From a virus (taxonomy: Duplodnaviria > Caudoviricetes): DNA of 25,869 bases. The translations under genes were made by a program, and so were the position numbers. This document shows, piece by piece, positions 1,967-23,619 of the stretch (its first letter is position 1; each line of letters begins with the position of its first letter). The notes below the pieces were generated by a model. It was not told the DNA's origin and searched no databases. It was given only the letters and a program-made list of their open reading frames with translations. The stretch is from positions 1 through 25,869 of IMG/VR virus record IMGVR_UViG_3300031938_000027, one strand, 5' to 3'.

Positions 1967-2061
1967 GACGATCTTCCTCTTCTCTTCGAATGTGGTGTGC
2001 AGAGCAGCGGACGGGCCGGCAGCCGTTGACTGCTGGCCCGCCTGCTGCTCGACCGGTCGGG

Positions 2062-2472: not shown

Positions 2473-2488
2473 GAGCTGACCTCCGCCC

Positions 2489-3532: not shown

Positions 3533-3546
3533 TGCTCAGCACCCCC

Positions 3547-3942
3547 CTACCGGATCCAGAACTTCACGCCCAGATCCGTGCGGGCGGCGGTGTCCAGACC
3601 GCTGCCCGCCCAGAGCCGGGCGGCGCGGATGACCCCGCGCCAGTGGATGGGTGCTCCCACGTCGGGTCCGCCGGTGCGGACCTTCGTGTTGGAGTAGAGG
3701 AAGCCGACGGCGACCTCACGGCCGTCGCTTGCGGCGTTGTCGTACGGACCGAACAGGCCCGTGGCGGTGATGCGACCGAGGACGGTTCCCGACGGGATGT
3801 ACCCGTTCGGGAAGTGCGTTCCTTCTGTGAAGGTCGAGGTGTCAAGGGTTACGGTCTGCGTGACGTCCGTGCCGTCACGCGATCCGAGCCAGGATCGATC
3901 CTCGGCCTGCCAGCTCTCGGTCGGCTGCAAAGTGATGTCCAT
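3547..3942 (-). CDS. Head decoration protein
   Basis: 131 aa between scaffold and MCP; GYIPSGTVLG, GLFGPYD.AASDGRE.AVGFL motif. Confidence 0.82.
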   Translation of the reverse strand: MDITLQPTESWQAEDRSWLGSRDGTDVTQTVTLDTSTFTEGTHFPNGYIPSGTVLGRITATGLFGPYDNAASDGREVAVGFLYSNTKVRTGGPDVGAPIHWRGVIRAARLWAGSGLDTAARTDLGVKFWIR

Positions 3943-3990
3943 GTGGACACGCCCCCGTCAGTCGATTCGAATGTGGTGAAGGCCGGACGG

Positions 3991-4853
<863 letters not shown>

Positions 4854-4857
<4 letters not shown>

Positions 4858-5048
4858 CGGTTCTCCCATGTCGGGTCGCGGGTGTCGCCCATGCCGGGCT
4901 GGTCGGTGTCGTCCTCGTCCGCGGCCGGGTGGACCATCGCGAGCCGGATGGCTCCGTCCGGACCGGGCACCATCGCCGCTTGCGGGTCACACCCGCACTC
5001 CGCTGTGGGTGCGTGCGGACGACCGTCTTCGGGGATGACATGCAGCAC
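4854..5048 (-). CDS. Small His/Cys protein (H..H..CxC.P...PDG...VH), paralog of 12260-12490
   Basis: AGGAAGGGGG RBS before GTG; motif shared with second gene in window. Confidence 0.6.
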
Positions 5049-5098
5049 GGCCGACCCCCCTTCCTGCTGGTCAGGGGATCGGCCGTGGACGCGGTTGG

Positions 5099-5500
5099 TC
5101 AGGCGGTGGGCTCGGTCGGGGCGGGCTCCGGGGTCGGCTCGGGGGCGGGCTCCTCGGCGGGCTCCGGCGCGATGGCCTTGAGCTGGTCGATCGCCTCACG
5201 CACCTCGGCGCGGGCCTGCTCGATCTCCGCCTGGTCGGCGGTGTCGTTGGTCAGCCGGTCGACCGCCGCCTCCACACGCCGGGCAGCGGCGGCGACGCTG
5301 GCCTTCATCTCGTTGATGTCCGCGTCGAGTCCCTCGAACTGGGCCATGATCTGCTCCTGTTGGGTGAGTACGGTCCGTGTCTGCTTGAGCAGCACGGCGA
5401 CGCCCGCGCAGGCCAGCAAGACGCCGGCGAGCAGGGCGTATTGGAGTGGACGGGGCACAGGGCACCGCCTTCGATTGGCCGGGCAACGCCCGGCGGTCAC
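5099..5500 (-). CDS. Membrane-anchored coiled-coil protein (start may be GTG 5458)
   Basis: Hydrophobic YALLAGVLLACAGVAVLL segment, heptad-like helix, acidic EP-repeat tail. Confidence 0.65.
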   Translation of the reverse strand: MTAGRCPANRRRCPVPRPLQYALLAGVLLACAGVAVLLKQTRTVLTQQEQIMAQFEGLDADINEMKASVAAAARRVEAAVDRLTNDTADQAEIEQARAEVREAIDQLKAIAPEPAEEPAPEPTPEPAPTEPTA

Positions 5501-6996: not shown

Positions 6997-6997
6997 G

Positions 6998-8578
6998 TCA
7001 GCTCACGCCTCCCCCGGGCGGGGCGGACGTGGACCCGCCGGCGATGTCTTTGCCGCCGGTGCCTCCGGTGCCGCCGGGCTGGCCGGTGTTCTCCTGGCCG
7101 GGCACCTGCTGCTGGTTGGGCTGCTGGTTGGGCTGCTGCGCAGCGAACGCGGCCTGCACCTGCTGCGCCAGCAACTGCTCCTCGGTGATCTCGGTCATGG
7201 TCCGGTCGGCCTCAGCCGGGGTCATGCGGAACACCTCGATGAGCAGCGTCCGCCTGGGCAGGACGTCCTTGAGCTTGCTCGCCGCGTCGGCACGCTCGGA
7301 CAGGCTCAGCCTGTCCGCCGGCGCCCAGATCGTCTGGAGCTTCGTCAGGTCCGCCCGGTCCGCCTGCCCGGCGTGCAGCAGCATCAGGGACATGACCTGA
7401 GCCCACGGGAACGAGGTGCGGGTGATCCGGTCTTCGACCTTGAACACCAGACCCTCACGGGACAGGCTCGCGCCCTCCGCCGACTGGTTCTCCCCAGCGG
7501 GGGACAGCATGTGCATCGGCGTGCGGGTGACCGCCGCCAGATGCTGAAGGTCGTCCTTGACCGCCGACAAGATCGGCGTCAAGTCGTTGACCGACGACTC
7601 CCACATCTCCGCGGACTCGGGGAGCTGCCACAACGCCGCAGGGTCCGCGGTGAACACCTTCGCGTAGTCGACCTCCTGGCCGGCGAGCGGGTGCCCCTCC
7701 GGGTACAGCAGCGGCAGGCCCTTAACCGCCCGCTGCCGGAACGCCTGCATGGTCGCGATGACCATGCGTTGCAGGATCTGGTGGTTGATCCTGTCGAGCA
7801 GGTCGGTGTGCGTCTCGAACTCGCCGAGCTGGTACTTGTTGACGAACCGGACGACGGGGATGCGGTTATGCGGCAGCGCACCGGAGCGATCCGGCGACCA
7901 CTCCCAGCCCTTCGGGTCGAACGACAGGATCGGGCCGAGCCGCGGCTGGTAGCCGTTGCCCGGCGAGGCCAGGCCACCCCGAAGCTCGGACGAGACATTC
8001 GTTGCGTTGGAGCGGCGAACCGCGACGTGCACCTCACCGGGCAGGAACAGGTAGGCCCGGTCCTCGCTCGCTGCGTCGTCGTGGAGCACCTTCAGCGCGG
8101 CGAGGACACGCCGCGGGTTGGCCGGGTCGACGTCGGCGACCATGAACCGCGGGTCTTCGCAGGTGACGAGCGGAGCGCCAGTGTCCGGGTCGACCGGACC
8201 GACGATGACGTACGCCTCGCCGACGGCGAGCATGAAGTCATGGACGTCGGCGCACGACACGTCCAGGCCGGCGCGGGTCCACAGCGAACCCACCTCGGCG
8301 TCGCCGGTCGCGTCGTCGTCCAGGGCGGTGCGGAACCCGACCGGCGTCATCCGCTCCGACATCACGGAGACGATCAGCTCAGCGAAATTGCTGCGGGCTT
8401 TCCTCTGGAACGCCTCGAACGCCTCACGCGCATTCTCCGCACCCTGGGGCAGCGGGGCGTGGCCGCGGTGATAGTCGAGCAGAAGCTGGAGCCGGGTGCG
8501 GCGCCGCCGGTCGGCGAGCATGTTGAACATCCGGCGCAGCCACCATCCGGGGCTCTGCACGACCTCGGTTTCGATCAC
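6998..8578 (-). CDS. Portal protein (SPP1 gp6-like)
   Basis: KARSNFAELIV, GEAYVIV, IPVVRF, QAFRQRAVKG, NQSAEG..REGLVFKVEDR; start at GTG 8578 after AAGGGGG. Confidence 0.9.
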   Translation of the reverse strand: MIETEVVQSPGWWLRRMFNMLADRRRRTRLQLLLDYHRGHAPLPQGAENAREAFEAFQRKARSNFAELIVSVMSERMTPVGFRTALDDDATGDAEVGSLWTRAGLDVSCADVHDFMLAVGEAYVIVGPVDPDTGAPLVTCEDPRFMVADVDPANPRRVLAALKVLHDDAASEDRAYLFLPGEVHVAVRRSNATNVSSELRGGLASPGNGYQPRLGPILSFDPKGWEWSPDRSGALPHNRIPVVRFVNKYQLGEFETHTDLLDRINHQILQRMVIATMQAFRQRAVKGLPLLYPEGHPLAGQEVDYAKVFTADPAALWQLPESAEMWESSVNDLTPILSAVKDDLQHLAAVTRTPMHMLSPAGENQSAEGASLSREGLVFKVEDRITRTSFPWAQVMSLMLLHAGQADRADLTKLQTIWAPADRLSLSERADAASKLKDVLPRRTLLIEVFRMTPAEADRTMTEITEEQLLAQQVQAAFAAQQPNQQPNQQQVPGQENTGQPGGTGGTGGKDIAGGSTSAPPGGGVS

Positions 8579-8585
8579 CGCGAAC

Positions 8586-8614
8586 CCACCCCCTTCCGTC
8601 ACGCCAGGGGGTGG
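8586..8614 (-). promoter_or_regulatory. 9-bp stem-loop that includes the portal Shine-Dalgarno
   Basis: CCACCCCCT-N11-AGGGGGTGG immediately upstream of portal GTG. Confidence 0.45.
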
Positions 8615-8621
8615 AGGCAAC

Positions 8622-8651
8622 GCGAGGCCCCGACCACGGTCGGGGCCTCGC
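8622..8651 (-). terminator. Strong hairpin downstream of NlpC/P60 gene
   Basis: GCGAGGCCCCGACC-N2-GGTCGGGGCCTCGC perfect 14-bp inverted repeat; no long U-tract. Confidence 0.55.
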
Positions 8652-8671
8652 ATCCTCTACAGGGGTAGCGG

Positions 8672-9457
8672 TTACAGCAGCCTGCGCGCGGTGTAGAAGG
8701 CGTAGACGCTCGACACCTTGATCCCGCCGCGCGGGGTGGAGGCGTGGACCATCCGGCCACCGCCGATGTAGATACCGACGTGCCCGGACGCGGGGAACAC
8801 CACGTCACCGAGTTGCAGCTCGCCCCGGCCGATCTGCCGGCCGCGGCCGACGATCCCACCGGTCTGGTGCGGCAGCCCGATCCCGACCCGGGCGTACGCC
8901 GCCATCACCAGGCCGGAACAGTCAAAGGCGCCCGGCCCGGCGGCGGCCCACACGTAGGGCTTGCCGACCTGGGCGAGGGCGAACGCCACGACGACGGCCG
9001 CGCGGCTCCCGTCCGCCTGCGCGACGTACACCGGGGTGACCGGTCGTGCGCGTGCGCGGCGGGGAGCTGGTGGGGCGGTGCTGCGTTGTCGGGGCTTGGG
9101 TGCCACGGCCCGCCTCTTGGGCGGGGCCGGTGCGGCGACCGGTGGAGTTACTGGCAGGGTTGACGACGCGGCGCTGGCCTCCGGCCGGCCGACAGAGCGG
9201 GCGGCCCGGTCGGCGCGGTCGGAGACCATGCGCTGCTTCATCGCTCGGATCTCGGCGGCTTCGTCGTACGCGACCGCGGGGGCCGCGGCGACGGCCGCCG
9301 GGATGTAGGTGTCGGGAATGGACTTGACCGCCGGCGCCGGGTTGGCGAGCGCTGCCATGCTGAGCACGACGAACGCGACGGTTGCGAGGGCCACGCACTG
9401 ACGCAGCGGACCGTGGTGCAGCGTACTGATGTCGCCTCCAGGGACGACCCGGGGCAC
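8672..9457 (-). CDS. Secreted NlpC/P60 (C40) peptidoglycan endopeptidase; start codon uncertain
   Basis: Signal-peptide-like N-terminus, Pro/Arg linker, GKPYVWAAAGPGAFDCSGLV...HVGIYIGGGRMVHAS with Cys-His-His intact. Confidence 0.88.
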   Translation of the reverse strand: MPRVVPGGDISTLHHGPLRQCVALATVAFVVLSMAALANPAPAVKSIPDTYIPAAVAAAPAVAYDEAAEIRAMKQRMVSDRADRAARSVGRPEASAASSTLPVTPPVAAPAPPKRRAVAPKPRQRSTAPPAPRRARARPVTPVYVAQADGSRAAVVVAFALAQVGKPYVWAAAGPGAFDCSGLVMAAYARVGIGLPHQTGGIVGRGRQIGRGELQLGDVVFPASGHVGIYIGGGRMVHASTPRGGIKVSSVYAFYTARRLL

Positions 9458-9547
9458 TCACGCGTTCGCTGGCTGGGCATACCCCCGTTGAGCTGCCCCG
9501 GCCCCCGCTCCACTGCGGTGAGCCGCCAACGACCCGGGTTAGGTGTC

Positions 9548-9570
9548 GCTGTGGTCATTCTGACCACAGC
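9548..9570. promoter_or_regulatory. Perfect palindrome between terL and NlpC/P60 gene
   Basis: GCTGTGGTCA-TTC-TGACCACAGC. Confidence 0.5.
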
Positions 9571-9582
9571 ACGGAGGCGCTT

Positions 9583-11316
9583 TCAGCGGATTCGCTTCGG
9601 TAGGTACACCTCTTGCGCCCGCGGCTTAACGCCTTGCGCAACTGCCTCGCTCGCCGCTTCGTAGGCCAGCACAGCCGCCATCGCGGCGTCAATTTTTCGG
9701 GGCGAATGCGGGTGCTCCTTGCGGATCTGCACCCCGGCCCGGCCGACAGCGCGCCGAGCGTTGCCGATATGCCGGGTCAGACCCAGCGCCATCCGTTGCT
9801 CGTTCGTGCCGTCGCCGCGGTCCTCCGGCGGCGTGAACCCGATCCGGCCGGCGCGCACCGCCTCGTAGAAGCGCTGCAACGCGGCGACCATCGCGGTGGG
9901 CCGGTTGGTCCACCACTCGATCGGCTTCTTGACGCTGGCCTTGACCTTCATCTTCTCCGCGTACTCGCGGTGCCAGCGGTCCAGCTCGTCGCGCCAGTGC
10001 GCGGGGTCGGCGTAGAACCCGACGACCTCGAAGTGCCGCATCGCGTTGGCGACCGCGGCGTCCACCGCGGACCGGTCGACTTCCCATTCGGTGCCGCCGG
10101 CACCCTCGGGCTTCTCCCACAGGCCGAGCAGCTCCAGGTGCCCATCGGCGACGCGGCACGCCACGAGCGCCGTCGCGTCGTCGCGGACGGAGCCGTCCAG
10201 GCCGAGCGTGACCATGTCGCGGCGCTTGAGCCCGGACCCGGGCCGCCGGCACCCCTCCCACTCGTGTTCCTGAATCCAGGCGTCCGAGCTGGAGGTGCGG
10301 GCGTTCAAGAAGTATCGACGCGAGTCACTCTCAGTGTTGCGAAGATCATAAAATTCATCGATGAGGCCATCGATGTCGATCCACTCAACAGCGTCGCCGT
10401 ACGCCTCGATCAGCGCCGCACGCAGCGCATCCTCGTCGGCGGTGTCCTTGCACTCGCCATACCTGTGGTCGTACATGAGGCGGTGCCGGCCGCGTTTCTT
10501 GCGGCCCTCGCGGAGCGCCTCCGCCTCCTCGTAGGTGGCCTTCGCCATCGAGTCCTCAGACGGGTCGAACATCGTCGTGGACTCGTAAAACCAGGTACCG
10601 GAGCCCTTCTTCCGCTTGCGCATGTTCCGCGTGATGGTGCGGTACATGCGCCGCAGCTCGGGGGTTGTATAGAGGTGCGTCTCATCGAGGACGCAGAACG
10701 TCTCCTTGCCGCCGTCCTTCGCCGAGCTGGAAGCGGTCGACACCCGGATGTCGCCGCCGCCCGGCAGCAGGATCTTGTCGACGCCGGCGTCGACGCCGGG
10801 CACGAACGACAGCGGCGGCTCGTACTCCTCGTCCGTCAGGTTGAAGTGGATGGTGGCGAACACGTTGCTCGCCGCCTGGTTCTCCTCCGTCGCCAAGCAC
10901 CGGATCATCGGCGCTGTCACCGGCCGGCCCATCGGCTCGCCCGGCTCGTAGACGTAGACGAATCCCAGACCCCACGGGTCGCGGAAGACCTCACCGCCCT
11001 TGGCCCATTGCCCGGTGAACCGGGCAGGGCCGAGAGCCTCGAACAGCGCGAGCCTGGCGCCCAGGCCGCTCTTGTCGCAGCCCTTCGGTCGGCTCAGAAA
11101 CGCGCTGTCGTACAGCATGTGGTTGTTCGACGGGTGCTCGCCGATCATGTAGCAGTCGACGATGAACCCGCTGTACTCCTCGCCGTGCGTGACCGGTTGG
11201 CCCTGCACGTCGCCTGGCCCATGCCGGACGAAGTGCTCCATCCATGCCAGCGCCAGCCACCCCAAGCTGCGGTTTCGGTCTTCGTCCCGGTGTGCACGTA
11301 CCAGCGTCCGTGGCAT
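9583..11316 (-). CDS. terL: Terminase large subunit
   Basis: Walker A SRPKGCDKS, Walker B VLDETH, nuclease LGLDGS..DDATAL, C-terminal KIDAAMAAVLA. Confidence 0.95.
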   Translation of the reverse strand: MPRTLVRAHRDEDRNRSLGWLALAWMEHFVRHGPGDVQGQPVTHGEEYSGFIVDCYMIGEHPSNNHMLYDSAFLSRPKGCDKSGLGARLALFEALGPARFTGQWAKGGEVFRDPWGLGFVYVYEPGEPMGRPVTAPMIRCLATEENQAASNVFATIHFNLTDEEYEPPLSFVPGVDAGVDKILLPGGGDIRVSTASSSAKDGGKETFCVLDETHLYTTPELRRMYRTITRNMRKRKKGSGTWFYESTTMFDPSEDSMAKATYEEAEALREGRKKRGRHRLMYDHRYGECKDTADEDALRAALIEAYGDAVEWIDIDGLIDEFYDLRNTESDSRRYFLNARTSSSDAWIQEHEWEGCRRPGSGLKRRDMVTLGLDGSVRDDATALVACRVADGHLELLGLWEKPEGAGGTEWEVDRSAVDAAVANAMRHFEVVGFYADPAHWRDELDRWHREYAEKMKVKASVKKPIEWWTNRPTAMVAALQRFYEAVRAGRIGFTPPEDRGDGTNEQRMALGLTRHIGNARRAVGRAGVQIRKEHPHSPRKIDAAMAAVLAYEAASEAVAQGVKPRAQEVYLPKRIR

Positions 11317-11341
11317 CGCTGCACCACCCGGCTACGGGTGG

Positions 11342-11848
11342 TCAGGCCGGTCGAGTCAGGCGCCGACGCCGGTCAGCGATCGGAGTCACCGACGCGCCGC
11401 CGCTGCTGCCGGCCAGGGCCACCTCGGTGACCTCGACCTCCAACTCCGGCTCGTCTTCCTCCTCGATCGAGGCAGGGTCAGCGACGTACCGGATGCGCAG
11501 CTTCCGCAGCGCCTCCAGCGTCGTGCCCATCTGGTCCTCGCGGCGGCGGATCTCGACGGCCATCGTGGTCGTCGCTTCACCCTGCTCGGCGAGCTTCCAG
11601 TAGGCGTTCTTCATGAACGCGGTCTCCAGCGCGAACGTCCAGTCGACCGCGCGCCACAGCACGCAGTGCGGCATCTCCCGGACCTGCTCCCACCACTGCT
11701 CGACCATCTGGTGCCACCGCTCACGGCGGGGCAGCTTCGGCAGGTCGGGGGACGGGCCGCTGTACGGCGTGTCCACCACGTCGGTCCAGTCGGCGTTCTG
11801 GGTGCGGCCGTGCTTGACCGTCTTGGCGGCGGGGCCTCGGTGTGCCAT
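11342..11848 (-). CDS. terS: Terminase small subunit
   Basis: Immediately upstream of terL; WW..V..MPHCVLW..VDW.FALETA...EIRRREDQMGTT..ALRKLRIRY; start ATG 11848 after GGGAG. Confidence 0.85.
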   Translation of the reverse strand: MAHRGPAAKTVKHGRTQNADWTDVVDTPYSGPSPDLPKLPRRERWHQMVEQWWEQVREMPHCVLWRAVDWTFALETAFMKNAYWKLAEQGEATTTMAVEIRRREDQMGTTLEALRKLRIRYVADPASIEEEDEPELEVEVTEVALAGSSGGASVTPIADRRRRLTRPA

Positions 11849-11936
11849 CGGAATCACTCCCATGTCGGGATGCAGCAGCACGCCCAGCCCCTGTCGGGCC
11901 GGGCGCAGGTGAACAGGTCAAGGGGGAGTGGGCCAG

Positions 11937-13239: not shown

Positions 13240-13548
13240 CTACCGCAGGGCCGGGTGCGTCTCCGGCGGCCGGTTCAGCGGTGGCCGGGCGGCCACGCCT
13301 TCCAGCGCCGACTTCCTTCGGTGGCAGGGCTCGCACGCCGGCTGGAGGTTCTCCAGCGAGTGGTCGTCGCCCCGCCGCTTGTGGTCGACCTGCGTGGCAG
13401 CGCCAACGCACAGGCCCGGGTAGCGCAGCGCGCACACCCGCCCATCCCGGGCGAACACCTGATCACGGACCCCGCCGGGCTTGTCCCAGTCGGCGGGGAG
13501 CCGGGCACGCCGCGTCGAGCCCGCCCACGGCCGGCGCACGCCGGTCAC
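13240..13548 (-). CDS. HNH endonuclease (terminase-associated type)
   Basis: RDGRVC...C...ATQVDHK..GDDHSLENLQPACEPCHRRKS. Confidence 0.9.
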   Translation of the reverse strand: MTGVRRPWAGSTRRARLPADWDKPGGVRDQVFARDGRVCALRYPGLCVGAATQVDHKRRGDDHSLENLQPACEPCHRRKSALEGVAARPPLNRPPETHPALR

Positions 13549-13967
13549 GTTGTGGACTCCCGGTCTTCCAGACCGACCGCGGAGCGCAGCTCGCGGCTGG
13601 CCTGCCGCGTCCGGCCGGCCAGCGCCTCGGCGTCGGACGTTCCGTCACCGGTCGCGGCGAGCAGCTCGGCGAGGCCCTCGGCGAGCGCGTTCAGCTTGTG
13701 CTGCGTCGCCTGGTCGGAGCGGGTGGCCGTGTTCTGGAGGAGTGCCACCAGTAGGAATGTGACGATGGTCGTGGCGGTGTTGATCACCAGTTGCCACGTG
13801 TCGACGTTCCCGAACAGCGGCAGCGACGGCGCCCAAACCAGCACCATCAGCACACATGCCGCGAAGAACGAGGCCCGCGACACCATCCGCGCGGCGACGC
13901 CGGCGAATCGGTCGAACCAGCCGACGCGCGCGGACACCTCGCTCGGCATCCGCTCCCGGCTGCTCAT
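13545..13967 (-). CDS. Low-affinity iron permease (Fet4-like) family membrane protein
   Basis: FDRFA..AARMVSR..FF..CVLMVLVW.P....DTWQLVINTATTIVTFLLVALLQNT..RSDQA.QHKLN signature. Confidence 0.82.
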   Translation of the reverse strand: MSSRERMPSEVSARVGWFDRFAGVAARMVSRASFFAACVLMVLVWAPSLPLFGNVDTWQLVINTATTIVTFLLVALLQNTATRSDQATQHKLNALAEGLAELLAATGDGTSDAEALAGRTRQASRELRSAVGLEDRESTT

Positions 13968-14834: not shown

Positions 14835-15153
14835 GTGCGCCGTGCGCGCCCCCGGGGGGGGTCCCCGCCCACCCCCGGGCGCGCGCGAAAAAACCGCGCC
14901 CGGCCGCGCGTCGTGTGGGCGCGGCGTGCGTGGGCGCGTATGCGCGACGCGTGGGGGTGGGCGCGTTTGCGCAGGTGGGCGGGGGTGCGTGACGCGGGCG
15001 CGCGTGTGTCGGCTCCGCCGTTCGGCCTAGTGGTGGTCAGCCGTTCGGCTGATTCTGGGGTGAGGGGGCTTGACAAGGCCCGCCTCCCTAGTGCCAACTG
15101 AGACCGCACAGCAACCCCGCCCCACCACATGGGGCACGACGCAGGGAGCGGAC

Positions 15154-15351
15154 ATGATCACACTGGCACTGGTGGGGGCACTGGCCATCCTGGCAGCACT
15201 GATGATCCACACCGTGCGGCGCAGGGCCACCGTGCAGCGCAGGGCAGCCGGCCACGCCGTGATCCACTCCGCTCCCATCGCTGACCCTGCCTGCCCAGAC
15301 CCGGACATGGGCGCTCTCTCGTGGCTCATTTGGGACGGACTTGACCGCTGA
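15154..15351 (+). CDS. Small membrane protein (65 aa)
   Basis: GGGAG RBS, MITLALVGALAILAALMI hydrophobic helix followed by basic residues; TTGACA at 15070 upstream. Confidence 0.55.
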   Translation: MITLALVGALAILAALMIHTVRRRATVQRRAAGHAVIHSAPIADPACPDPDMGALSWLIWDGLDR

Positions 15352-15364
15352 CCCTGCCTGCCCA
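15279..15364 (+). repeat. 19-bp direct repeat CGCTGACCCTGCCTGCCCA
   Basis: Copies at 15279-15297 and 15346-15364. Confidence 0.8.
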
Positions 15365-15394
15365 CCCGTTCCCCGTATCAGGAAGGCGCCCACC

Positions 15395-18300
15395 ATGAAC
15401 GCCAACAGCACCCCCACCCCCCGCATCGGCGACGTGATCCTCATCCCCGCCGGCGCTTGCCCCGAGTACCGCGCCGCGTTCCGTCTCCGCGTCTCGGAGA
15501 TCCTCACCCGGGCCGGTCGCGGCACCCTTGACCGGCCGATCGTGGGCGGAACCGTGGTCAACGCCAACGGGCAAGACCGCATGCTCAAGGGCACCCCGGT
15601 CGAGCGCGCTTGCACGGTCGACCTGGGCGCGGTGACCGTGGTCACCCCCGCCCCCGCGACCGACGCGGAGATTCGCGCGGCCTACGCCGATCATGCGGCA
15701 CGCGAGATTGAGCGCACCCGGTGCGCTCACGCACCCGATGCCCTGGGCTGCACGCACGTGCACTGTGTCGGCGTGCCACCGGTCGATGCCGCGACGTCGG
15801 TCGAGCCGGAAGCGTCGGACGTTGCGACCCCCGCGGAGTACGGCACGCAAACGCTCGCACGGACGTTGCGTGACACGCTCCGCGCGTATCCCACGATCAC
15901 GGATGCGTCCATGCCGCGGGTCACGACTACGGGTGAGGGCAACGGCCGTACGCGTCCGTTCACTGTGGCTACCTCCCAGGTCGACGGACACGCCGTGAAC
16001 GTGATCATGTGGGAGGGTCCGCGCTGCGCGCCGATGACCGCGGTCATGATCGATGGCGTACTGATCAACGCCGATGTTACCGGCGGACGTGCCATGCGCA
16101 ACGATGAGCGCACGAACATGATCGTTTGGCGGGTAGCGGACGCGCTCCGCGACACGGCCACGGTCGAGCCTGCCGATACGTGTTGCGCGCAGTGTGGAAG
16201 CCCGGCGAGTAGCAACCGTCACCATGTGGCGCGCCCAGCAGGGCACCCGTTTGTCGCCGAGGGTGAGGCCACCATGTCCGCCACCGTCGCCCAGGTCGAG
16301 CCGGCCACGGTCACGCTTGCCGATCCGGCCGCGCGTGCGCTCGCCACCATGACCGCGCTTACAGCCGATGTCGTGCACGTGGGATGCCTGCACGGTCTGA
16401 AGGGTGCGCCCGGGTGTCACGTGACCGGGTGTGACATGCCGATCCGGCCGGCACTGGTCACGTGCCCCGAGTGTCTCGCGTGGCTTGCCGGCGAGTCCGG
16501 CCGCGCGTGGGCCGGACGTTGGGCTGGCAACTTTGCCCGTATCGCGCAGAGCGGATACGGGTGCGCCGGGTTTACCCCCCGCGACGGGTGGCCGCACACG
16601 TGCGCCGGGTGCCTCCGTCCCGACGTCGCGCACACCCCCGCACTGTCCGCCTACCCGCACAACCTGGGCGCCGATGCGCCCGTAACCGAGAGTGAGGCCA
16701 CCATGTCCGCCACCGTTCCCGCCACCGTCGCCCAGGTCGAGCCGGCCGCCGTGCCCGTGGTCGACGCGGCCCCCGATGTGCTTGCGGCGTTGCTCGCGGG
16801 TGAGCCGATCCCCGCGGACGCGCTTACCCCGGTCGAGCCGGCCCGGCTGTCTGTGACGGTCGACCGCGACACGCTCGCGGACGCGCTCACACTGGCCGCG
16901 TGGTCCGCCCCGCGTCGCCCGTCCGTGCCCGTCCTGTCGGGCGTGATGATCACGGCCGACGCGGATGCCGGCACGGTCACGTTCGGGTCGTTCGATTACG
17001 AGGTTTTCTCGATCAACGCGCTTCCCGCGACCGTGACCGCGGCCGGCCGCGTGTTGGTCGATGTCAAGGCACTCCGCGACATGGTCAAGACGTTCCCTAA
17101 GGTCAAGCGACTGACGGCCGCCCAGGTCCGTAAGGGTGTGACCCTGCCGGCCGGTGCGGGCATGGTCACACTCACGGACACGGGAAGCGCGGTCACGGTC
17201 GAGTACGGCGCGGCCCGTGCGTCCCTGCCGACCCTGCCCGCGGAGGATTACCCGGCGATCATGCTCGGTACCGCGACCCCCGCAACCGTCGCCCAGGTCG
17301 ACGCGGACATTCTGGCCGCGACCGTGGCCCGGGTGACCGTGGCCGCGGGTAAAGACGACACGCTGCCAATGCTCACGGGCGTGCAGCTCACGACGGACGC
17401 GGACGGACTCCGCGCCCACTTGGCAGCAACCGACCGGTACCGTCTCGCGGTCGACGCGACCCGTTGGGTGCCGGTCGTGCCGGACGGGGCAGAGCCGCGC
17501 GAGCACATCATGCCCGCGCTCATCCCCGCCGCGACGCTCGCCTACGCCGCAAAGTGGTTCGGCCGTACCGCGGGCGTGGTCACGGTCGGCATGACGTACG
17601 GCACCCGGTCGACCATGACGGGCAGTGGTAAGACCGCTAAAACGGTCGTGACGACGTACGCCGATTCGATCACGCTGACGTGCGGCCCGGTCACGATCGG
17701 CACCCGCACCCTTGACGGGGAGTTTCCCGCGGTACGCGCGTTGCTCCCGGACACGTACGCCGGTACCGCCCAGGTCGACGCGCACGCACTGGCCGATGTC
17801 GTCGCACGGGTCGGCATGGTCGCGGCGCGTTCAACGCCGGTTCGGCTCACGTGGTCGGCCGACGCGGTCACCGTGGCCGCGACCGGTGACGGTGACGCGA
17901 CCGCATCGGAGACCATGCCCGCGTCCGCGGACGTCGCGGACGGGTTCACGATGGGCCTTAACCACGCGTTTCTGATTGACGGACTCCGCGCGTTCTCCAA
18001 AGGTGCGGCCGTCCGGTTCGGGTTCGTGTCCGCGTCAAAGCCGGCCGTCATCGAATCGGCCGACACGGACGGGCCGGACGCGTTCCGCTATCTGATCATG
18101 CCGGTTCGTATCGGCGGGGGTAGTGAGTCGGCCGCCCCGTCTACCCCGGTCGGTCACCGGTCGGTTGCGGTCGAGCCGGCCCCCGTGGTCGAGCCGGTCG
18201 TCCAGGTCGAGCCGGTCGCGGACGTGACTCCGGTCGAGCCGGCCGCCCCGGCCGCCCCGGTCGAGCCCGTCGCCCAGGTCGAGCCCGTCGCGGCCCCCGT

Positions 18301-19618
18301 GGTCGCACCGGCCGCCCCGGTCGCGGTCGAGCCGGTCACGGTGCCCGCGTCGGTCGACCTTCACGGGGTCACGGTCGAGCGTGTCGCGGAGATCCTGCGC
18401 ACCGGCACGTGGTCGAGCGCGGTTGTCCGCGTCGGCAAGGGTCGGGAGCGGCGCCCGATGGGCGTGAGGGTGCTCGCGCTCAACGCCGGCCGGCTGGACT
18501 ACGCGACCGAATACAAGGCGGTTGCGGCCGTGCTCGCGACCCTGGGCGGGGGTTGGAACCGTGAGGTTAAGGGGTTCGCGTTTGCCCCGTCTGAGACGGT
18601 TTGGAACGGCGCCGGTGCGGGTGCGCGGACGCCGGAACCGTCAGCGAAGGTGACCGGGTGGCTTGACCGGTACGCCCCGGCCGCGGACTCCGCCCCGGTC
18701 GCCCAGGTCGAGCCCGTCGCGGACGTTGCGCCCGCTGAGACGGTCAACGCGGCCCCCGCGGACGTGCCCGCGGTCGACGCGCACGACGCGGCGGAACATG
18801 CCGCCCAGGTTGTGCACGACGCGATGACCGCGGGTGACTACCCGGGCGCACGGGTGGCCCTGGGCGACGTTGCCCGGGTGGCCCCGGCCGGGTACCTCGT
18901 CGCGGGTCGGTTCACGCTTGACGCGCTCGCCGGGATCATCGACGCGGCGGAGCGTGACGCGCTCGCGTCGGCCCCCGCGCCCGTCGCCCAGGTCGAGCCG
19001 GCCGCCGTGGTTGAGCCGGCCGCGATCCTGAAGACGCCTAGCGCTCCCGGCGTTGTGCTGCCCATGGTCGCGGCGGGTACCCGCGTGCGCGTGACCCGTG
19101 AGCCCGTGACCGTGGTCGGGTCGGTCGAGTACGAGCCGGGCATGGTTCGCGTCCGTCACGCCGACGGTTCGGTTACCCGGACGCTGCGCGAGTACGTGAC
19201 CCCGGTCGAGCCGGCCGCGCCCGCGGTCGAGCCCGTCGCGGCCCCCGTGGTCGAGCCGGCCGCGATCGACGCTGACGACGCGGACACCCTGGCCGCGGGC
19301 ACGGCCGCCGCGCTCGCGGCCATGGTCGAGCCGGTCGAGCCGGCCGCCGCGTCCGTGGTCGAGCTGGACGCGGCCGGGCGGCTGTCGTTCACGATCGCGC
19401 CGTACGCGGAAGATGTGAACGAGGGTCGGTCGTACAAGGCGACGCGCAAGCACGTTCACGCGGCGCTGCGCGCGGCGAAGGTGCGGGCCACGGTGCACGC
19501 GGACACCGACAGCCGGCGGGGTATGCACGTTGAGTGCGACGCCGCCGACCGGGTGCGGGTGGCCGTGATCGTGCGTAACACCGTGACCGTGGTCGAGCCG
19601 GCCGCCGCGACTGTCTGA
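15395..19618 (+). CDS. 1407-aa multidomain protein containing a DNA polymerase III beta sliding-clamp (DnaN) domain at about 16847-18112
   Basis: AGGAAGG RBS; RRPSVPVLSGV, SFDYEV, GRVLV, LPAEDYP, AAGKDDTLPMLTGV, AATDRYRLA, LDGEFP.VRALLP, N..FL.DGL, KPAVI, YLIMPVRI are actinobacterial DnaN motifs; flanking modules joined by VEPA linkers. Confidence 0.88.
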   Translation: MNANSTPTPRIGDVILIPAGACPEYRAAFRLRVSEILTRAGRGTLDRPIVGGTVVNANGQDRMLKGTPVERACTVDLGAVTVVTPAPATDAEIRAAYADHAAREIERTRCAHAPDALGCTHVHCVGVPPVDAATSVEPEASDVATPAEYGTQTLARTLRDTLRAYPTITDASMPRVTTTGEGNGRTRPFTVATSQVDGHAVNVIMWEGPRCAPMTAVMIDGVLINADVTGGRAMRNDERTNMIVWRVADALRDTATVEPADTCCAQCGSPASSNRHHVARPAGHPFVAEGEATMSATVAQVEPATVTLADPAARALATMTALTADVVHVGCLHGLKGAPGCHVTGCDMPIRPALVTCPECLAWLAGESGRAWAGRWAGNFARIAQSGYGCAGFTPRDGWPHTCAGCLRPDVAHTPALSAYPHNLGADAPVTESEATMSATVPATVAQVEPAAVPVVDAAPDVLAALLAGEPIPADALTPVEPARLSVTVDRDTLADALTLAAWSAPRRPSVPVLSGVMITADADAGTVTFGSFDYEVFSINALPATVTAAGRVLVDVKALRDMVKTFPKVKRLTAAQVRKGVTLPAGAGMVTLTDTGSAVTVEYGAARASLPTLPAEDYPAIMLGTATPATVAQVDADILAATVARVTVAAGKDDTLPMLTGVQLTTDADGLRAHLAATDRYRLAVDATRWVPVVPDGAEPREHIMPALIPAATLAYAAKWFGRTAGVVTVGMTYGTRSTMTGSGKTAKTVVTTYADSITLTCGPVTIGTRTLDGEFPAVRALLPDTYAGTAQVDAHALADVVARVGMVAARSTPVRLTWSADAVTVAATGDGDATASETMPASADVADGFTMGLNHAFLIDGLRAFSKGAAVRFGFVSASKPAVIESADTDGPDAFRYLIMPVRIGGGSESAAPSTPVGHRSVAVEPAPVVEPVVQVEPVADVTPVEPAAPAAPVEPVAQVEPVAAPVVAPAAPVAVEPVTVPASVDLHGVTVERVAEILRTGTWSSAVVRVGKGRERRPMGVRVLALNAGRLDYATEYKAVAAVLATLGGGWNREVKGFAFAPSETVWNGAGAGARTPEPSAKVTGWLDRYAPAADSAPVAQVEPVADVAPAETVNAAPADVPAVDAHDAAEHAAQVVHDAMTAGDYPGARVALGDVARVAPAGYLVAGRFTLDALAGIIDAAERDALASAPAPVAQVEPAAVVEPAAILKTPSAPGVVLPMVAAGTRVRVTREPVTVVGSVEYEPGMVRVRHADGSVTRTLREYVTPVEPAAPAVEPVAAPVVEPAAIDADDADTLAAGTAAALAAMVEPVEPAAASVVELDAAGRLSFTIAPYAEDVNEGRSYKATRKHVHAALRAAKVRATVHADTDSRRGMHVECDAADRVRVAVIVRNTVTVVEPAAATV
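16263..16716 (+). repeat. 25-bp direct repeat GTGAGGCCACCATGTCCGCCACCGT containing SD-like GAGG and in-frame ATG
   Basis: Copies at 16263-16287 and 16692-16716. Confidence 0.85.
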
Positions 19619-19625
19619 CCCGCCT

Positions 19626-19658
19626 ACCCGGGGCGGGTGACCGCCATCCGCCCCGGGT
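19626..19658 (+). terminator. Hairpin after the clamp-fusion gene
   Basis: ACCCGGGGCGGGTG-ACCGC-CATCCGCCCCGGGT, 14-bp stem with one G-U. Confidence 0.6.
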
Positions 19659-19659
19659 G

Positions 19660-19681
19660 TAACCTTGCCCTAGGTGTTAGG
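19660..19681 (+). promoter_or_regulatory. Conserved 22-bp promoter/operator motif, copy 1
   Basis: TAACCTTGCCCTAGGTGTTAGG; 19/22 identical to 22327-22348. Confidence 0.7.
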
Positions 19682-19708
19682 GCAGAGAACACGAGGGAGT
19701 GACCCGAA

Positions 19709-20302
19709 ATGACGATCATCGACACGCATATGGCCACGGCCACGGATACGGACCCCGCCGCTACCGGGTGGCAGGCCGTGACCCTCACGGAGTACGCCGG
19801 CGACCCCGGGCAGGGCCGCGCGGAGTACGTCGCCAACGACGCCCGCACCGGCGAATACGCCGGCGAAGTCCGGCGCAGCACCCGCGGCCGGTGGCACGCC
19901 TACCGGGGCGGCGTCACCGGTTCGGGCCGGTCGCGTGGCGCCGCGCTCACCGCCGTGCAGTGGCTTGACGCGGTGCCGGTTGAGCGCGTCCGCCGGGGTG
20001 CCGCGCTTGTGCTGGCCGACGGGACCGCGGTCACGGTCGCTGGCACCTGGGCGGGCAACGCGACAGAGCGCCGCGCGCTGGAGTTGCACGCGACCGGCCG
20101 CCGCGTCGAACTGTCCACGCCCGCCCCGGTTGAGCCGATGTGTGCCCAGGTCGAGAGCACCCGGTGGCGCGGCCGTCGGGTGATCTCGTACCTGTACCGG
20201 CCGGCCGCCGGCACGCTCGTGGTGCTCGCCCCGCCGTGCTGGCATTGCGCGACTGAGGCCGGCCGGGCGTGCGCGCCGAACTGCCACACCTTCAACCGCT
20301 GA
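19709..20302 (+). CDS. Hypothetical protein (197 aa), Cys-rich C-terminus
   Basis: GAGGGAG RBS; C-terminal CWHC...C...CH. Confidence 0.7.
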   Translation: MTIIDTHMATATDTDPAATGWQAVTLTEYAGDPGQGRAEYVANDARTGEYAGEVRRSTRGRWHAYRGGVTGSGRSRGAALTAVQWLDAVPVERVRRGAALVLADGTAVTVAGTWAGNATERRALELHATGRRVELSTPAPVEPMCAQVESTRWRGRRVISYLYRPAAGTLVVLAPPCWHCATEAGRACAPNCHTFNR

Positions 20303-20353: not shown

Positions 20354-22267
20354 ATGAGCAACGCACGCGCCGCACGCATGGCACAGCGCGCCCGCAAGCA
20401 CGAGGAAGCCGCCGCCCGCGTCATCGATGGATTCGTGCGCACCCCCGCCGGCCTGGCCGATGACCTGGTGTCGGGGCACCGCGACATGAGCGCATTTACT
20501 TGGGGCGCGCGCATCCTGGAACCGTCCGCCGGTGACGGCGCGATCGTGCGCGCCATCCTGGAAGGTGACCGCGACGTGACCGTGATCGCGGTCGAGCCCA
20601 ACGGGGAGCGGGCCGACGCCCTCGACGCGCTCTCCGGTGAGGCAGACCACGCCGGCCGCGTGATCGTGTTCCGGGGCGCGCTTGAGCAGTACGCCGAACA
20701 CGTCGCATGGTGCCGCGAGTACCCGACAGCGGAGGTTGCCGGCCTGCCGGCGACCATGCACGGCGACCCGTTCGACGGCGTGATCATGAACCCGCCGTTT
20801 GGTGACTCGTCCCGTGACCTGGTGTGGATCGATCACGTGCGCACCGCGTGGGAAATGCTCCGGCCGGGCGGACTTCTCGTGTCGATCGTGCCCCCGTCGT
20901 ACGCGTTCCGCTCCGACAAGGCGCACCGCGCGTTCCGCACCTGGGCGGAATCGCACGGCGCGACGTACGCCAAGCTTCCCGGTCAGCCGTTCGCAGAGTC
21001 CGGCACCGGCACGCAAGCGGGCATCCTCACCGTGCCCCGGCCGATGCCGGCCCGCGCGGATGGGCTTCCCACGTGGCTTTACGCACCCGCCGCCGGTGTG
21101 CCGGTGCCGGTGCGGGGTCTGCCGGTGACCACGTCCGCGGGTGCCCTGACCATGCCCGTACAGGAGTACAGCGATTTTTCCGACGGGTCGCGCCCGCGGG
21201 TGCTCCGGTACTCGGGCACGTGCCACACGTGCGGCCGGTGCTGCTGGACGCACGACGACCGGCACGACGCCGCCGCGTTCGAGGCGATCACGGTCGATGC
21301 CGCCGAACACGCCGCCGCCGGCCCGTCCGTCGTGCTCTGCCTCGAACACGGCACGGGCGGGGAGGAGACGGCCGCCGCGCTCGCCGCCGCCGCGCCGCAC
21401 TGGACCCCGGACGCGGACGCTGACCCGCTCGCCGAAACCGGGCCGGTCGTGTACCCGCTCGACCTGGACGCGGGCACCTGGGCGACCGTCCGTGGGATCG
21501 ACTCCCACGGGTGGGTATTCACCATCACGGGTCGCGTCATGTGCACCCCGGAGCGCGTCGCGGACCTGGGCGAGTCGGCCTCGTTCCATGACGAGCGGAT
21601 CGGCGTCACGCTGCGCACCGTGCGCGGGTGGACGGTCGAGCTGTACGCGCTGGAAGACCAGCGGGTGACCGTGCGCGACGTGCTCACCGACGCGGTGCCG
21701 GCCCCGGCCGCAGAACCCCTGCCGGACTGGATGCCTCAACCGGCCGCCGGTCGGCCGCTCGCGACCGCGGGCAGCGCGGAGCGCCTCGCCGAGTCCGCCG
21801 ACATGGCCGCGCACCACCAGGCCGCCGCGGACGCCGCGCGGACGCACATCGTGGGCGGGTCGACCGTCGTCGCACACCCCGACCACGGCGCACCGGTCAT
21901 CGTCGCGCAGACACGGCGGATCGACATCACAGACGCAGGCGACAACCCGCCGGCGGGCGCGTGGGTCGCGGACCCGTCGCGCACCCCGGTCGGCGCCACG
22001 CTCACCGTGTACGGGGTCCGCACCGGGCAGGCTGACGAGATGATCCGCCGCGAGCACGTCACGCTCGACCACGACACGCACGAGGCGGCGCAGGCGCTCG
22101 CGGAAGAGGTCGCCGCCGGCGAGCCGATCACGCCCGGCGTGGCCGTCTGGGTGCTGGTCAGCCGTGACAGCATCAATCACGAGTACGCCGACGCGCGACG
22201 GGCCGCGCCCGCGCCCGCGCCGTTCGTGTCGGACTGGTCGAACTGGACTGAGCCGGCGCTGTTCTGA
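20354..22267 (+). CDS. DNA amino-methyltransferase (likely m6A) with long C-terminal accessory domains
   Basis: FVRTP (motif X), ILEPSAGDGAI (motif I), AVEP (II), VIMNPPF (IV), LRPGGLLVSIVP, PFAESGT (VIII); then CxxC domain and small beta domains. Confidence 0.88.
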   Translation: MSNARAARMAQRARKHEEAAARVIDGFVRTPAGLADDLVSGHRDMSAFTWGARILEPSAGDGAIVRAILEGDRDVTVIAVEPNGERADALDALSGEADHAGRVIVFRGALEQYAEHVAWCREYPTAEVAGLPATMHGDPFDGVIMNPPFGDSSRDLVWIDHVRTAWEMLRPGGLLVSIVPPSYAFRSDKAHRAFRTWAESHGATYAKLPGQPFAESGTGTQAGILTVPRPMPARADGLPTWLYAPAAGVPVPVRGLPVTTSAGALTMPVQEYSDFSDGSRPRVLRYSGTCHTCGRCCWTHDDRHDAAAFEAITVDAAEHAAAGPSVVLCLEHGTGGEETAAALAAAAPHWTPDADADPLAETGPVVYPLDLDAGTWATVRGIDSHGWVFTITGRVMCTPERVADLGESASFHDERIGVTLRTVRGWTVELYALEDQRVTVRDVLTDAVPAPAAEPLPDWMPQPAAGRPLATAGSAERLAESADMAAHHQAAADAARTHIVGGSTVVAHPDHGAPVIVAQTRRIDITDAGDNPPAGAWVADPSRTPVGATLTVYGVRTGQADEMIRREHVTLDHDTHEAAQALAEEVAAGEPITPGVAVWVLVSRDSINHEYADARRAAPAPAPFVSDWSNWTEPALF

Positions 22268-22368: not shown

Positions 22369-23619
22369 ATGACCGCAACCACCGACCCGGCCGACGCCTA
22401 CCGCGCCGCGCTCGCGGCTGCCGGCCTGCCGGACGGGCTCACGTGGTCCGTCAAGGTGACCGCGCGCCGCGCGACCGCCACCCCGGCGAAGACCCGCCGC
22501 ACGCTCGGTGCCACGATCGCCCCGGGCGGTACCGCCGTCGTCTTCACCGTGCCCGCCGACACCGACCCCGGCAAGGTCGCCGACGCCGCCCGCCGCATGC
22601 GCGGTAAGCTCGCCGTTGCCGCGGAGGACATGCGCGCCCGGGGCGTGACGATCGTCCGTAAGCAGCTCGTGAACGGCGAAGGGTTCCCGTTCGCGGGCAC
22701 GAACCACCGTCTCCGCCTGGTCGATGACAGCGACACCGGCCGGCGCTGCCCGTGCCAGTGCTCGCGGCTCACCACCGAGCACCCGGGCGTGCCGATCGTC
22801 GCGGAGCGCGGACACCCGACGTGGTCCGGCGTCCGCACGTGGCAGCTCACGATGCGCCGCGACGCAGCCACCGCCCGGACGGTCATCGAGTGGTACCGCG
22901 AGCAGGGCCGCGCGTGGCTCGACCGGCACGTGCCGGACCTGCTCCGCCGGGTGTACGTCCAGCCGGCCGACTGGCCGACGTGGGAGGTTCGCCCGTACCG
23001 CGAGGGTGAGGGCTACGGCGGCACGTGGGGGACGTACCTCCCGCGCACGCACACGATCCGCCTCTCCTGGCTCGTGTTCCAGTTCCCCGCCGACCTGCTG
23101 CGCTACGTGGTCGCGCACGAGGTCGCGCACGCCGCGATCCGCGGCACCCACGGGCACGGCCGGCCGTGGCAGCTCGTGGTTTCGCGACTGTGCCCCGACT
23201 GGGAGACGTTGGACCCGCGCGCCCGCGCACTGCCCGGCCTGTGCCTCTGGGCCGGCGAGCTGGACACACCGCCGGCGGCGCCGGAGGAGTTCCCGGCCTG
23301 GATGCTCGCCGACCTGCGCGAGCTGCTCGCGGGCGCGTCCTGGTCGGTGGGTTCGTTCCGGCCGGGCCTGTTCAAGCGCGGCGAGCCGGTCGCCGCGGAC
23401 GTGCTCCGCGTGCCCACCCGCGAGACGTGGTCGAGCGGCGCTCGCGACATGGCCCGCCGCGTGCTGGACGGCATCGGCGGGCACATGTCGACCGACGCCG
23501 ACGGGTTTCTGTTCCCGCTGGGCGAGGGTCCCGAGCGGCTGCGCGCGTTGCTGGGCGACGTCCCCGCGCCGGTCGCCCCGTTCGTGTCCGCCTGGTCGAC
23601 GTTCGCGGGTGCGCGATGA
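22369..23619 (+). CDS. YgjP/DUF45-like (M48/zincin) metallohydrolase with extra C-terminal domain
   Basis: VNGEGFPFAG..HRL, WGTY....TIRLSW....P.DLLRYVVAHEVAH....H...W..V.RLCPDW. Confidence 0.82.
   Translation: MTATTDPADAYRAALAAAGLPDGLTWSVKVTARRATATPAKTRRTLGATIAPGGTAVVFTVPADTDPGKVADAARRMRGKLAVAAEDMRARGVTIVRKQLVNGEGFPFAGTNHRLRLVDDSDTGRRCPCQCSRLTTEHPGVPIVAERGHPTWSGVRTWQLTMRRDAATARTVIEWYREQGRAWLDRHVPDLLRRVYVQPADWPTWEVRPYREGEGYGGTWGTYLPRTHTIRLSWLVFQFPADLLRYVVAHEVAHAAIRGTHGHGRPWQLVVSRLCPDWETLDPRARALPGLCLWAGELDTPPAAPEEFPAWMLADLRELLAGASWSVGSFRPGLFKRGEPVAADVLRVPTRETWSSGARDMARRVLDGIGGHMSTDADGFLFPLGEGPERLRALLGDVPAPVAPFVSAWSTFAGAR

Follow-up and report, generated by a model that had tools for sequence, protein, structure and literature searches.

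A beta sliding clamp embedded in a 1407-residue phage protein of many modules, and a C-terminal tail shared by products of its neighbouring genes

Sliding clamps are stand-alone rings, to which clients normally come by means of short peptides. T4 gp45 works with late-transcription factors, eukaryotic PCNA is bound through PIP boxes by DNMT1, by Spartan (a protease of the SprT family) and by other clients, and the canonical clamp-binding consensus is QL[SD]LF / QLxLxL. Here we describe a phage protein, P0001, in which a complete beta clamp lies in the middle of a chain of 1407 amino acids (aa). It is encoded by the 25,869-bp (base pair) IMG/VR virus record IMGVR_UViG_3300031938_000027, which we analysed over its whole length and refer to as the window (completeness estimate about 30%, G+C about 70%); two genes downstream of it encode enzymes that end in a common tail, PF(V/L)SxW. 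That a clamp may act as a docking hub is also known from phage Mu, whose late transcription proceeds through the host clamp (PMC12867686). The likeness of our locus to the Mu, T4 and PCNA hubs would lie in the proposed logic, by which short terminal peptides bring methyltransferases and proteases to a sliding ring. The differences are that PF(V/L)SxW is unlike the known consensus motifs and that the clamp described here also bears covalently tethered modules.

The second group of systems that needs to be considered is that of the polyvalent proteins (Iyer, Burroughs, Anand, de Souza and Aravind 2017; PMC5512222), that is, mobile-element proteins of many small shuffled modules. In that paper, methyltransferases and zincin peptidases are given as the hallmark and commonest polyvalent domains, next to the effector domains SNF2, ParB and ART; such proteins are thought to be delivered with DNA, and autoprocessing by their peptidases has been proposed there. 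Neither 'clamp' nor 'DnaN' occurs in its main text. P0001 resembles these proteins in its many small, shuffled modules and in a gene neighbourhood with an adenine methyltransferase and a zincin peptidase; moreover, the methyltransferase part of the 637-aa neighbour is similar to pieces of PHROG families of giant proteins (2789-3925 aa). Of the at least ten modules in this one phage protein, the clamp alone has a known function. On the other hand, the enzymes are separate gene products here, no non-clamp module matches a described domain, and Pfam and PHROG searches with P0001 and its relatives returned the clamp only, with no enzymatic or effector domain and none of the hallmark domains in their own chains. 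As the latter are not in the same chain, P0001 is, strictly speaking, no polyvalent protein, but it does stand in a polyvalent-type neighbourhood. The term 'polyvalent-like', used in a first-pass annotation of this DNA, thus fits the context (shuffled modules, methyltransferase and zincin neighbours, modules shared with them) and does not fit the chain itself, which holds no effector domain besides the clamp.

The clamp and the reading frame that encodes it

All three Pfam clamp domains are found in P0001 above their curated cut-offs and with nearly the whole profile covered in each case (PF00712 at aa 486-622, 66.7 bits; PF02767 at aa 635-778, 57.0 bits; PF02768 at aa 782-905, 60.3 bits). The PHROG family phrog_947, 'DNA polymerase processivity factor', matches over aa 486-907 with an E-value of 6.6e-56, and the PDB chain 8dj6_A is matched nearly end to end (E 4.7e-50, with residues 6-411 of the query aligned to 11-367 of the chain); altogether, 49 distinct PDB sequences match the clamp part at E <= 1e-5. 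A beta clamp within a 1407-aa protein, with about 480 aa before it and about 500 aa after it, had been proposed in the first-pass annotation, and the Pfam and PHROG placement confirms it. The worry expressed there, that the region might not form a three-domain clamp, does not hold: all three domains are present in full.

The clamp shares with stand-alone DnaN proteins (8dj6, clamps of Arthrobacter phages, dnaN of Streptomyces plasmids) the three domains, similarity over the full length, the pocket blocks and the C-terminal LIMPVR. The blocks ATDRYRLA, LIPAATL, NHAFL and LIMPVRI are conserved across 13 fused and 15 stand-alone clamps, and their general forms, TDRYRLA, LIPA..L, N..[FY]L and LIMPVR, are kept as in the stand-alone proteins. 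From E. coli beta, we take these blocks (TD..RL, P..L, N..YL and the C-terminal MP.R) to form the partner-binding pocket. Only four mild group-specific columns distinguish the fused clamps from the 15 stand-alone phage clamps; by this alignment, the clamp core is not remodelled. What sets P0001 apart from stand-alone DnaN are about 485 aa before the clamp, about 500 aa after it and two internal insertions. These insertions, described as basic in the first-pass annotation, proved real against both solved clamps and the 15 stand-alone phage clamps. The first is shorter, with a conserved RKG, in the relatives P0005-7 and P0009, and absent in P0008 and P0010-13. Among the PDB matches there are engineered fusions as well, namely clamp-MutL (6e8d, 6e8e) and SMT3-clamp (6p81); as clamp fusions at either terminus have been solved, appendages at both ends are compatible with the clamp fold.

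The first-pass annotation had suggested a decoy for host clamp clients. As a decoy or poison, the clamp would capture those clients or enter into mixed rings together with host DnaN; replication and repair in the host would thereby be diverted or blocked, and the appendages would prevent normal use of the ring. The conserved pocket blocks would suit this idea, and so would the fact that the closest non-viral clamps include accessory dnaN genes of Streptomyces plasmids: in a tblastn search of 50,697 phage records and 72,556 plasmids, only the clamp part was matched, at about 31-35% identity, by Arthrobacter and Mycobacterium phages (34% for the Arthrobacter phage clamps, annotated as 'DNA polymerase III sliding clamp beta') and by Streptomyces plasmid dnaN (31-35%). 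However, nothing speaks specifically for a decoy, the core is not remodelled in comparison to stand-alone phage clamps annotated as processivity factors, and neither about 1000 aa of conserved extra modules nor a set of tail-tagged partners is needed for such a role. We therefore regard this possibility as improbable, the least probable of the functional readings considered here.

Because long spurious frames are common in GC-rich DNA, it was also necessary to consider that the fusion is an artefact, i.e. that separate genes were merged by an assembly or sequencing error, or that the frame is open by chance. An 819-aa frame on the opposite strand (15326-17785) is such a case, being the usual shadow frame of GC-rich DNA, and the public (JGI/IMG) gene call of the source contig comprises only a 425-aa C-terminal product (P0014, equal to aa 983-1407). 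However, at every 300-nucleotide (nt) step from 15301 to 19618, G+C at third codon positions (GC3) is highest and that at second positions (GC2) lowest in the frame of the fusion, an unbroken signature in one frame; the layout is repeated in twelve relatives; and an identical 1407-aa sequence is on a record from a second assembly, a 23,319-bp contig. We also aligned Logan contigs from three soil runs to positions 15000-20000. An 8082-nt contig from the likely source sample spans 15993-20000 with 0 differences, and two further soil samples yielded contigs over 16663-17154, 17410-18388 and 16684-16956, again with 0 differences and with both clamp junctions bridged; no indels were reported in this region. 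An error joining separate genes, which the first-pass annotation had named as one thing that would refute the claim, is contradicted by each of these lines (the continuous GC3 frame, the 12 relatives, the second assembly and the soil contigs), and an artefact is extremely improbable. The fusion is genuine: a real, rare and conserved new architecture of a known protein. It should be stressed that the database annotation of the source contig hides it, and ordinary annotation would not bring it to light.

Relatives, linkers and flanking modules

The clamp-fusion family is very rare. Among 5.8 billion protein clusters, our search retrieved 12 long relatives (1060-1477 aa) with the clamp in the middle. 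Eleven of them were scanned with Pfam (P0006 was left out): all three clamp families were found at E <= 0.05 in ten and two in P0012, while in P0008 two of the three were below the curated cut-off. Among 42 viral loci with a related clamp the long form occurs in L003 only; the other 41 of 41 are without a C-terminal extension, and their upstream open stretches reach at most 284 codons, the chance level for DNA of 70% GC. With the C-terminal 498 aa, HMMER found 17 proteins among 1.84 billion representatives, mostly from the clamp-fusion family, and with the N-terminal 262 aa no shorter protein was matched. No relative was obtained by alignment of the N-terminal part against contigs of species-representative genomes, no close relative in viral contigs with a single-protein query, and none for the clamp region among proteins longer than 2463 aa (the last being weak evidence); a metagenome scan recovered only the contig itself and three short contigs. 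Full-text literature search gave no account in which a phage clamp is joined to modules of this kind.

The first-pass annotation had described VEPA-rich linkers and several Cys/His clusters in the N-terminal part, and both are borne out. VEP[AVT] occurs 19 times in P0001, and a slightly wider pattern 20 times, against 0-1 in each of the other 25 open reading frames (ORFs) of the window. Six linker stretches (309 aa) consist of A/P/V/E in 70%, against 38% in the rest of the protein, and in the C-terminal model they score below 50 by pLDDT (predicted local distance difference test). The Cys/His clusters are the N2 knuckle and the N5 domain (Table 1). In 13 sequences, C110, G118, C119, C124, G126 and P128 of N2 are invariant and H112 is conserved in at least 90%, from which we infer metal binding by the knuckle, a candidate property of a region modelled at a pLDDT of about 67. 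The end of the N5 domain is also visible in an open frame on L045. Within the linker that precedes the clamp, the PDVLAALLAGEP peptide (aa 455-470) is kept in 7 of 13 family members (P0001-P0006 and P0008) and could be an internal docking peptide.

Structures were predicted with AlphaFold2 for aa 1-262 (8 sequences in the alignment, mean pLDDT 84) and for aa 965-1407 (12 sequences, mean pLDDT 75), the latter model containing four compact units between disordered linkers. Foldseek against the PDB returned nothing at E <= 0.001 for either model. VIA structural comparison gave middling scores only for aa 1-262, and its list for aa 965-1407 was filled by generic TPR-like helices matching C2, so that C1, C3 and C4 were barely probed; for C4, Foldseek rows were weak (e.g. 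HMA and EscJ-type alpha/beta units). There was no usable match for the seven separate modules in Pfam at E <= 10, none for C1, C4 and the N-terminal profile in a PDB sequence search, and none for aa 1-262 in the ESM Atlas, where C1 was linked weakly, at 0.78-0.83, with clusters of TraD and DUF5710; the likeness of C1 to DUF5710 remains a lead only. As modelled, the flanking modules are independent, well-folding and shuffled units whose folds look generic.

The shuffling is apparent from a phmmer module map, in which N1-N3 come before the clamp and C4 last in most proteins, with the order of C1, C2, the SH3-like module and the TVVA module permuted; in P0017, C1 stands before the clamp. Such permutation suits modules that need only to be tethered, not placed in a fixed order. 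Eleven family members have C1, which is also part of the neighbouring peptidase (aa 296-401), and TVVA is part of the neighbouring methyltransferase (aa 502-531), i.e. two module types of the fusion recur in its neighbours. C3 also exists as stand-alone proteins of 75-94 aa (P0019-21) and within P0018, P0022 and P0023. C4 was found by phmmer in ten proteins, namely eight fusion-family members, the fragment P0015 and the stand-alone 104-aa P0016, and it can be aligned in 13 of 13 aligned fusion proteins.

An arrangement of this kind might be that of a polyprotein, in which cleavage takes place at the A/P/V/E linkers: the YgjP/SprT-type peptidase, bound by way of its tail or of C1, would release an ordinary clamp and separate small proteins. 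The gene for the zincin peptidase lies two genes downstream; the peptidase is found together with the fusion in a second genome as well and has the C1 module in common with it; autoprocessing is what Iyer et al. propose for such peptidases in polyvalent proteins (PMC5512222); C3 and C4 do occur as small stand-alone proteins (P0016, P0019-21); and borders between modules bear repeats of the linker motif (A)QVEP. However, the linker sequences differ between lineages, VEPAPVA in some being replaced by APVAETVAP or ADQD-rich stretches in others, which argues against a specific cleavage site, and enzymes other than the protease are tailed as well. Ala/Pro-rich linkers are, besides, common flexible spacers in high-GC bacteria. 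Processing is thus an unlikely explanation, though somewhat less so than a decoy.

A shared C-terminal tail and a possible DNA-riding hub

Both the methyltransferase and the peptidase of the window end in ...AP(x)PFVS[DA]WS.... In L047, the contig of the relative P0003, the gene after the fusion encodes a 347-aa Zn-ribbon protein that ends in ...RPAPFVSGWAAI. We scanned IMG/VR for the tail DNA CCGTTCGTGTCSNNNTGG and obtained 119 loci, in only one of which, L052, the motif is at the end of a coding-like frame; L052 and the fusion P0009 share one 166-kb (kilobase) contig. The tail gene of L052 is an orthologue of the window peptidase, with the tail and without C1, and further genes in the same 12-kb stretch, encoding a 434-aa unknown protein, a PAPS-reductase-like protein and a 327-aa unknown protein, carry the tail too, giving four consecutive-operon genes (1986-11895, minus strand). 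The tail cluster and the fusion lie at opposite ends of the 166-kb contig, and would adjoin each other only in a circular or permuted record. A fifth ORF of L052 (100 aa) ends in a weaker ...PPVSWWGAS, and a C5 cytosine methylase gene is located at the edge of that locus (2-937).

For counting, coding-like ORFs of 80 aa or more were used, and a tail was defined as [PLA]F[VLI]S.W lying among their 16 C-terminal residues. Such a tail is present in 7 of 58 ORFs of fused-clamp loci (two in the window, one in L047, four in L052) and in none of 928 ORFs of control viral loci, comprising 525 ORFs from the 41 loci with stand-alone related clamps and 403 from the 118 other pattern-hit loci. The seven tails are PFVSDW, PFVSAW, PFVSGW, PFLSGW, PFVSSW, PFVSGW and LFVSTW. 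Their bearers are mutually unrelated, and several act on DNA: an adenine methyltransferase, a PAPS-reductase-like protein, YgjP/SprT orthologues with and without C1, a Zn-ribbon protein and two unknown proteins. This shared tail on the neighbours of the fusion is previously unnoticed. P0018 (437 aa), a relative of the L047 Zn-ribbon neighbour that contains a C3 module, has a Trp-rich and acidic ending, ...DPWAEVDSWGDLLGDD, which may be a variant tag.

The interpretation that we prefer to injected cargo, a processed polyprotein and a decoy, and to which we would assign a probability of roughly 0.35, is that P0001 encircles DNA as a hub, bearing modules on tethers and offering a dock to enzymes with the tail. 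The first-pass annotation had likewise considered a DNA-sliding scaffold, a reading to which the tail on the neighbouring enzymes lends indirect support. The clamp fusion would dimerise into a ring on phage DNA, presumably loaded by the host clamp loader, and its linkers of 36-80 aa would give the modules a reach of tens of nanometres. The receptor of the tail would be the clamp fusion, either through its pocket or through a conserved family-specific module, and methylation and other modification of DNA, as well as a SprT-type protease, might thereby be held on phage DNA early in infection. A working ring with tethered modules is suggested by the core, which is not remodelled, by the conserved pocket blocks and by the compatibility of fusions at both ends with the clamp fold. 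Also consistent with a hub are the completeness of the clamp, the conserved architecture, the flexible linkers, the modules common to the fusion and its neighbours and the tail on those neighbours, together with the Mom-like and DUF6884/DpdA DNA-modification genes in the same operon. A more specific proposal, which we hold a little more tentatively still, is that of tagged clients: at least six unrelated proteins with PF(V/L)SxW would dock on the decorated clamp and so bring modification of DNA and clean-up of protein-DNA along with it over the phage genome. Such a system would be the counterpart, in a virus of the bacterial world, of PCNA with its PIP-box clients, made from modules that no database knows.

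Several points weigh against a hub. Neither replication genes nor a clamp loader are visible in the 25.9-kb window, which is estimated to be about 30% complete, and Pfam, Foldseek and VIA gave no recognised activity or DNA-binding fold for the tethered modules. Three of the seven tails were used to define the motif, L052 was located through the tail DNA itself, and the three tail-bearing genomes are kin; the link between tail and fusion may thus come from shared ancestry and not from function. Moreover, the canonical consensus is unmatched, as no tail has Gln or the Leu-x-Leu/Phe spacing. This lowers the case for a canonical motif, not that for binding to the fusion. Finally, if the ordinary clamp pocket were the receptor, the tail would be expected in phages with stand-alone clamps, where it was not found; its absence from plain-clamp phages would be explained if the receptor were a family-specific module.

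A different way to interpret the tail is to consider it a packaging or ejection signal. The fusion and the tailed enzymes would then be injected cargo of the polyvalent type, placed in the capsid and leaving it together with the DNA, as do the Dar proteins of P1, to shield incoming DNA from restriction, and N3 would be a DarA/Hdf-like anchor that binds capsid and DNA. On one hand, the N3 model is weakly like a P1 head chain, which was taken as DarA from its modelled length and range (PMC12810830); a methyltransferase and a zincin peptidase are typical of polyvalent proteins, which PMC5512222 describes as thought to be delivered with DNA; small domains, flexibly linked, would be suited to travelling through a phage tail; and the operon adjoins packaging genes. 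On the other hand, the DarA label of that chain is deduced, the PDB codes being absent from the text of PMC12810830, and the modelled match of N3 to the head-internal anti-restriction proteins DarA/Hdf is middling, tied with unrelated folds, at 10-14% identity, which amounts to no sequence similarity. In addition, the operon runs opposite to the structural genes, the Mom-like and DpdA-type genes act on DNA during replication, and a closed ring on DNA could not traverse the tail. We find this explanation rather unlikely, although it is the strongest of the rivals to a DNA-riding hub.

Genomic setting and significance of the clamp fusion

The minus strand of the window contains a block of head and packaging genes, and the clamp-fusion gene stands at the head of an operon on the plus strand, divergent from the side with the HNH endonuclease and terminase genes (Table 1). 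Locus L003, from the contig of the relative P0009, has the same layout, the fusion being divergent from a region with the small terminase. Downstream of the fusion, the Mom-like gene, the 219-aa ORF and the DUF6884/DpdA-like gene point to a cluster for hypermodification of DNA. By TerL, the closest isolate is Streptomyces phage Samy, with whose large terminase that of the window shares 64.2% identity over 94% of its length, and for this reason the host is probably an actinomycete, Streptomyces or a relative. Samy is not among the 57 phage records matching the clamp fusion, and there is no such gene in its right arm.

Shortly 5' of the start codon of the fusion, an 18-nt direct repeat, GCTGACCCTGCCTGCCCA, is found at 15280-15297 and 15347-15364, and there is an 18-nt tandem repeat (two copies, 94% matches) at 15210-15245; the divergent promoter region could have its operator or other regulatory sites in these repeats. 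Two observations concern the minus strand. The NlpC/P60 gene, of the peptidoglycan hydrolase type, is in an unusual position, and its PHROG matches are parts of large virion or tail proteins. A gene with a low-affinity iron permease domain (13545-13967; PF04120, E 5.5e-25; phrog_3485, 'membrane protein') adjoins the HNH endonuclease gene.

Table 1. Features of the window, ordered by position
Feature	Positions	Strand	Basis or remark
Protease, scaffold, decoration protein, major capsid protein (2489-3532)		-	
Portal	6998-8653	-	Pfam/PHROG annotation
NlpC/P60 protein	8672-9457	-	between large terminase and portal
Large terminase	9583-11316	-	Pfam/PHROG annotation
Small terminase	11342-11881	-	Pfam/PHROG annotation
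HNH endonuclease	13240-13548	-	
Shine-Dalgarno-like AGGAAGG	15380-15386	+	8 nt before ATG at 15395; N-termini of relatives align from that ATG
Clamp fusion P0001, 1407 aa, stop codon included	15395-19618	+	open frame without internal stop
N1, aa 6-90, predicted small beta-barrel of SH3/KOW/Tudor type	15410-15664	+	predicted model
N2, aa 90-135, helix, then C-x-H-x6-C-x4-C-x-G-V-P-P knuckle, putative Zn site	15662-15799	+	alignment and model
N3, aa 144-256, predicted helix / 4-5-strand antiparallel sheet / helix	15824-16162	+	predicted model
Short CC-x2-C ... HH insert, aa 263-285	16181-16249	+	P0001 only; gapped in 12 of 12 relatives
N5, aa 301-425, Cys/His-rich, 8 Cys and 6 His	16295-16669	+	phmmer: P0001-P0003 only
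Pre-clamp linker, aa 426-485, with conserved PDVLAALLAGEP peptide	16670-16849	+	alignment
Complete three-domain beta sliding clamp, aa 486-907	16850-18115	+	Pfam, phrog_947, PDB match
Clamp insertion 1, about aa 570-589, VKRLTAAQVRKGVTLPAGAG, basic, domain I	17102-17161	+	gapped in solved and stand-alone clamps
Clamp insertion 2, about aa 736-752, GTRSTMTGSGKTAKTVV, domain II	17600-17650	+	gapped against solved and stand-alone phage clamps
Longest linker, aa 908-987, 80% A/P/V/E, VEP[AV] repeats	18116-18355	+	9- and 18-nt tandem repeats at 18169-18324; pLDDT < 50
C1, aa 988-1092, alpha/beta, WSSAVVRVGKGR ... GGGWNREVKGFAF	18356-18670	+	AlphaFold2 pLDDT about 90
C2, aa 1129-1192, three-helix bundle	18779-18970	+	AlphaFold2 pLDDT about 95
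C3, aa 1230-1269, small five-strand barrel, EPGMVRVRHADGSV	19082-19201	+	AlphaFold2 pLDDT 60-74
C4, aa 1322-1399, beta-alpha-beta-beta-alpha, terminal in every case	19358-19591	+	AlphaFold2 pLDDT > 90
197-aa ORF between fusion and methyltransferase	19709-20302	+	coding-like GC3 0.90; no Pfam/PHROG family match
637-aa N6-adenine-type DNA methyltransferase, NPPF motif, tail ...APAPFVSDWSNWTEPALF	20354-22267	+	tail core 22220-22237
416-aa YgjP/SprT-type zinc peptidase, C1 at aa 296-401, tail ...APVAPFVSAWSTFAGAR	22369-23619	+	PF01863, E 5e-20; tail core 23578-23595
Mom-like gene, 219-aa ORF, DUF6884 and DpdA-like gene running off the contig end	23625-25869	+	Mom-like: PF25680, E 3.4e-21

What the locus presents is a virus that has welded about 1000 residues of shuffled modules to a ring and whose neighbouring genes encode products with a common terminal tag. 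If the hub proposal is true, this would be a way for a phage to retain, on its own DNA, enzymes that modify DNA or counter restriction. Further gains would be a new pair of peptide and receptor by which proteins can be tethered to DNA, and a role for several domain families that are without annotation.

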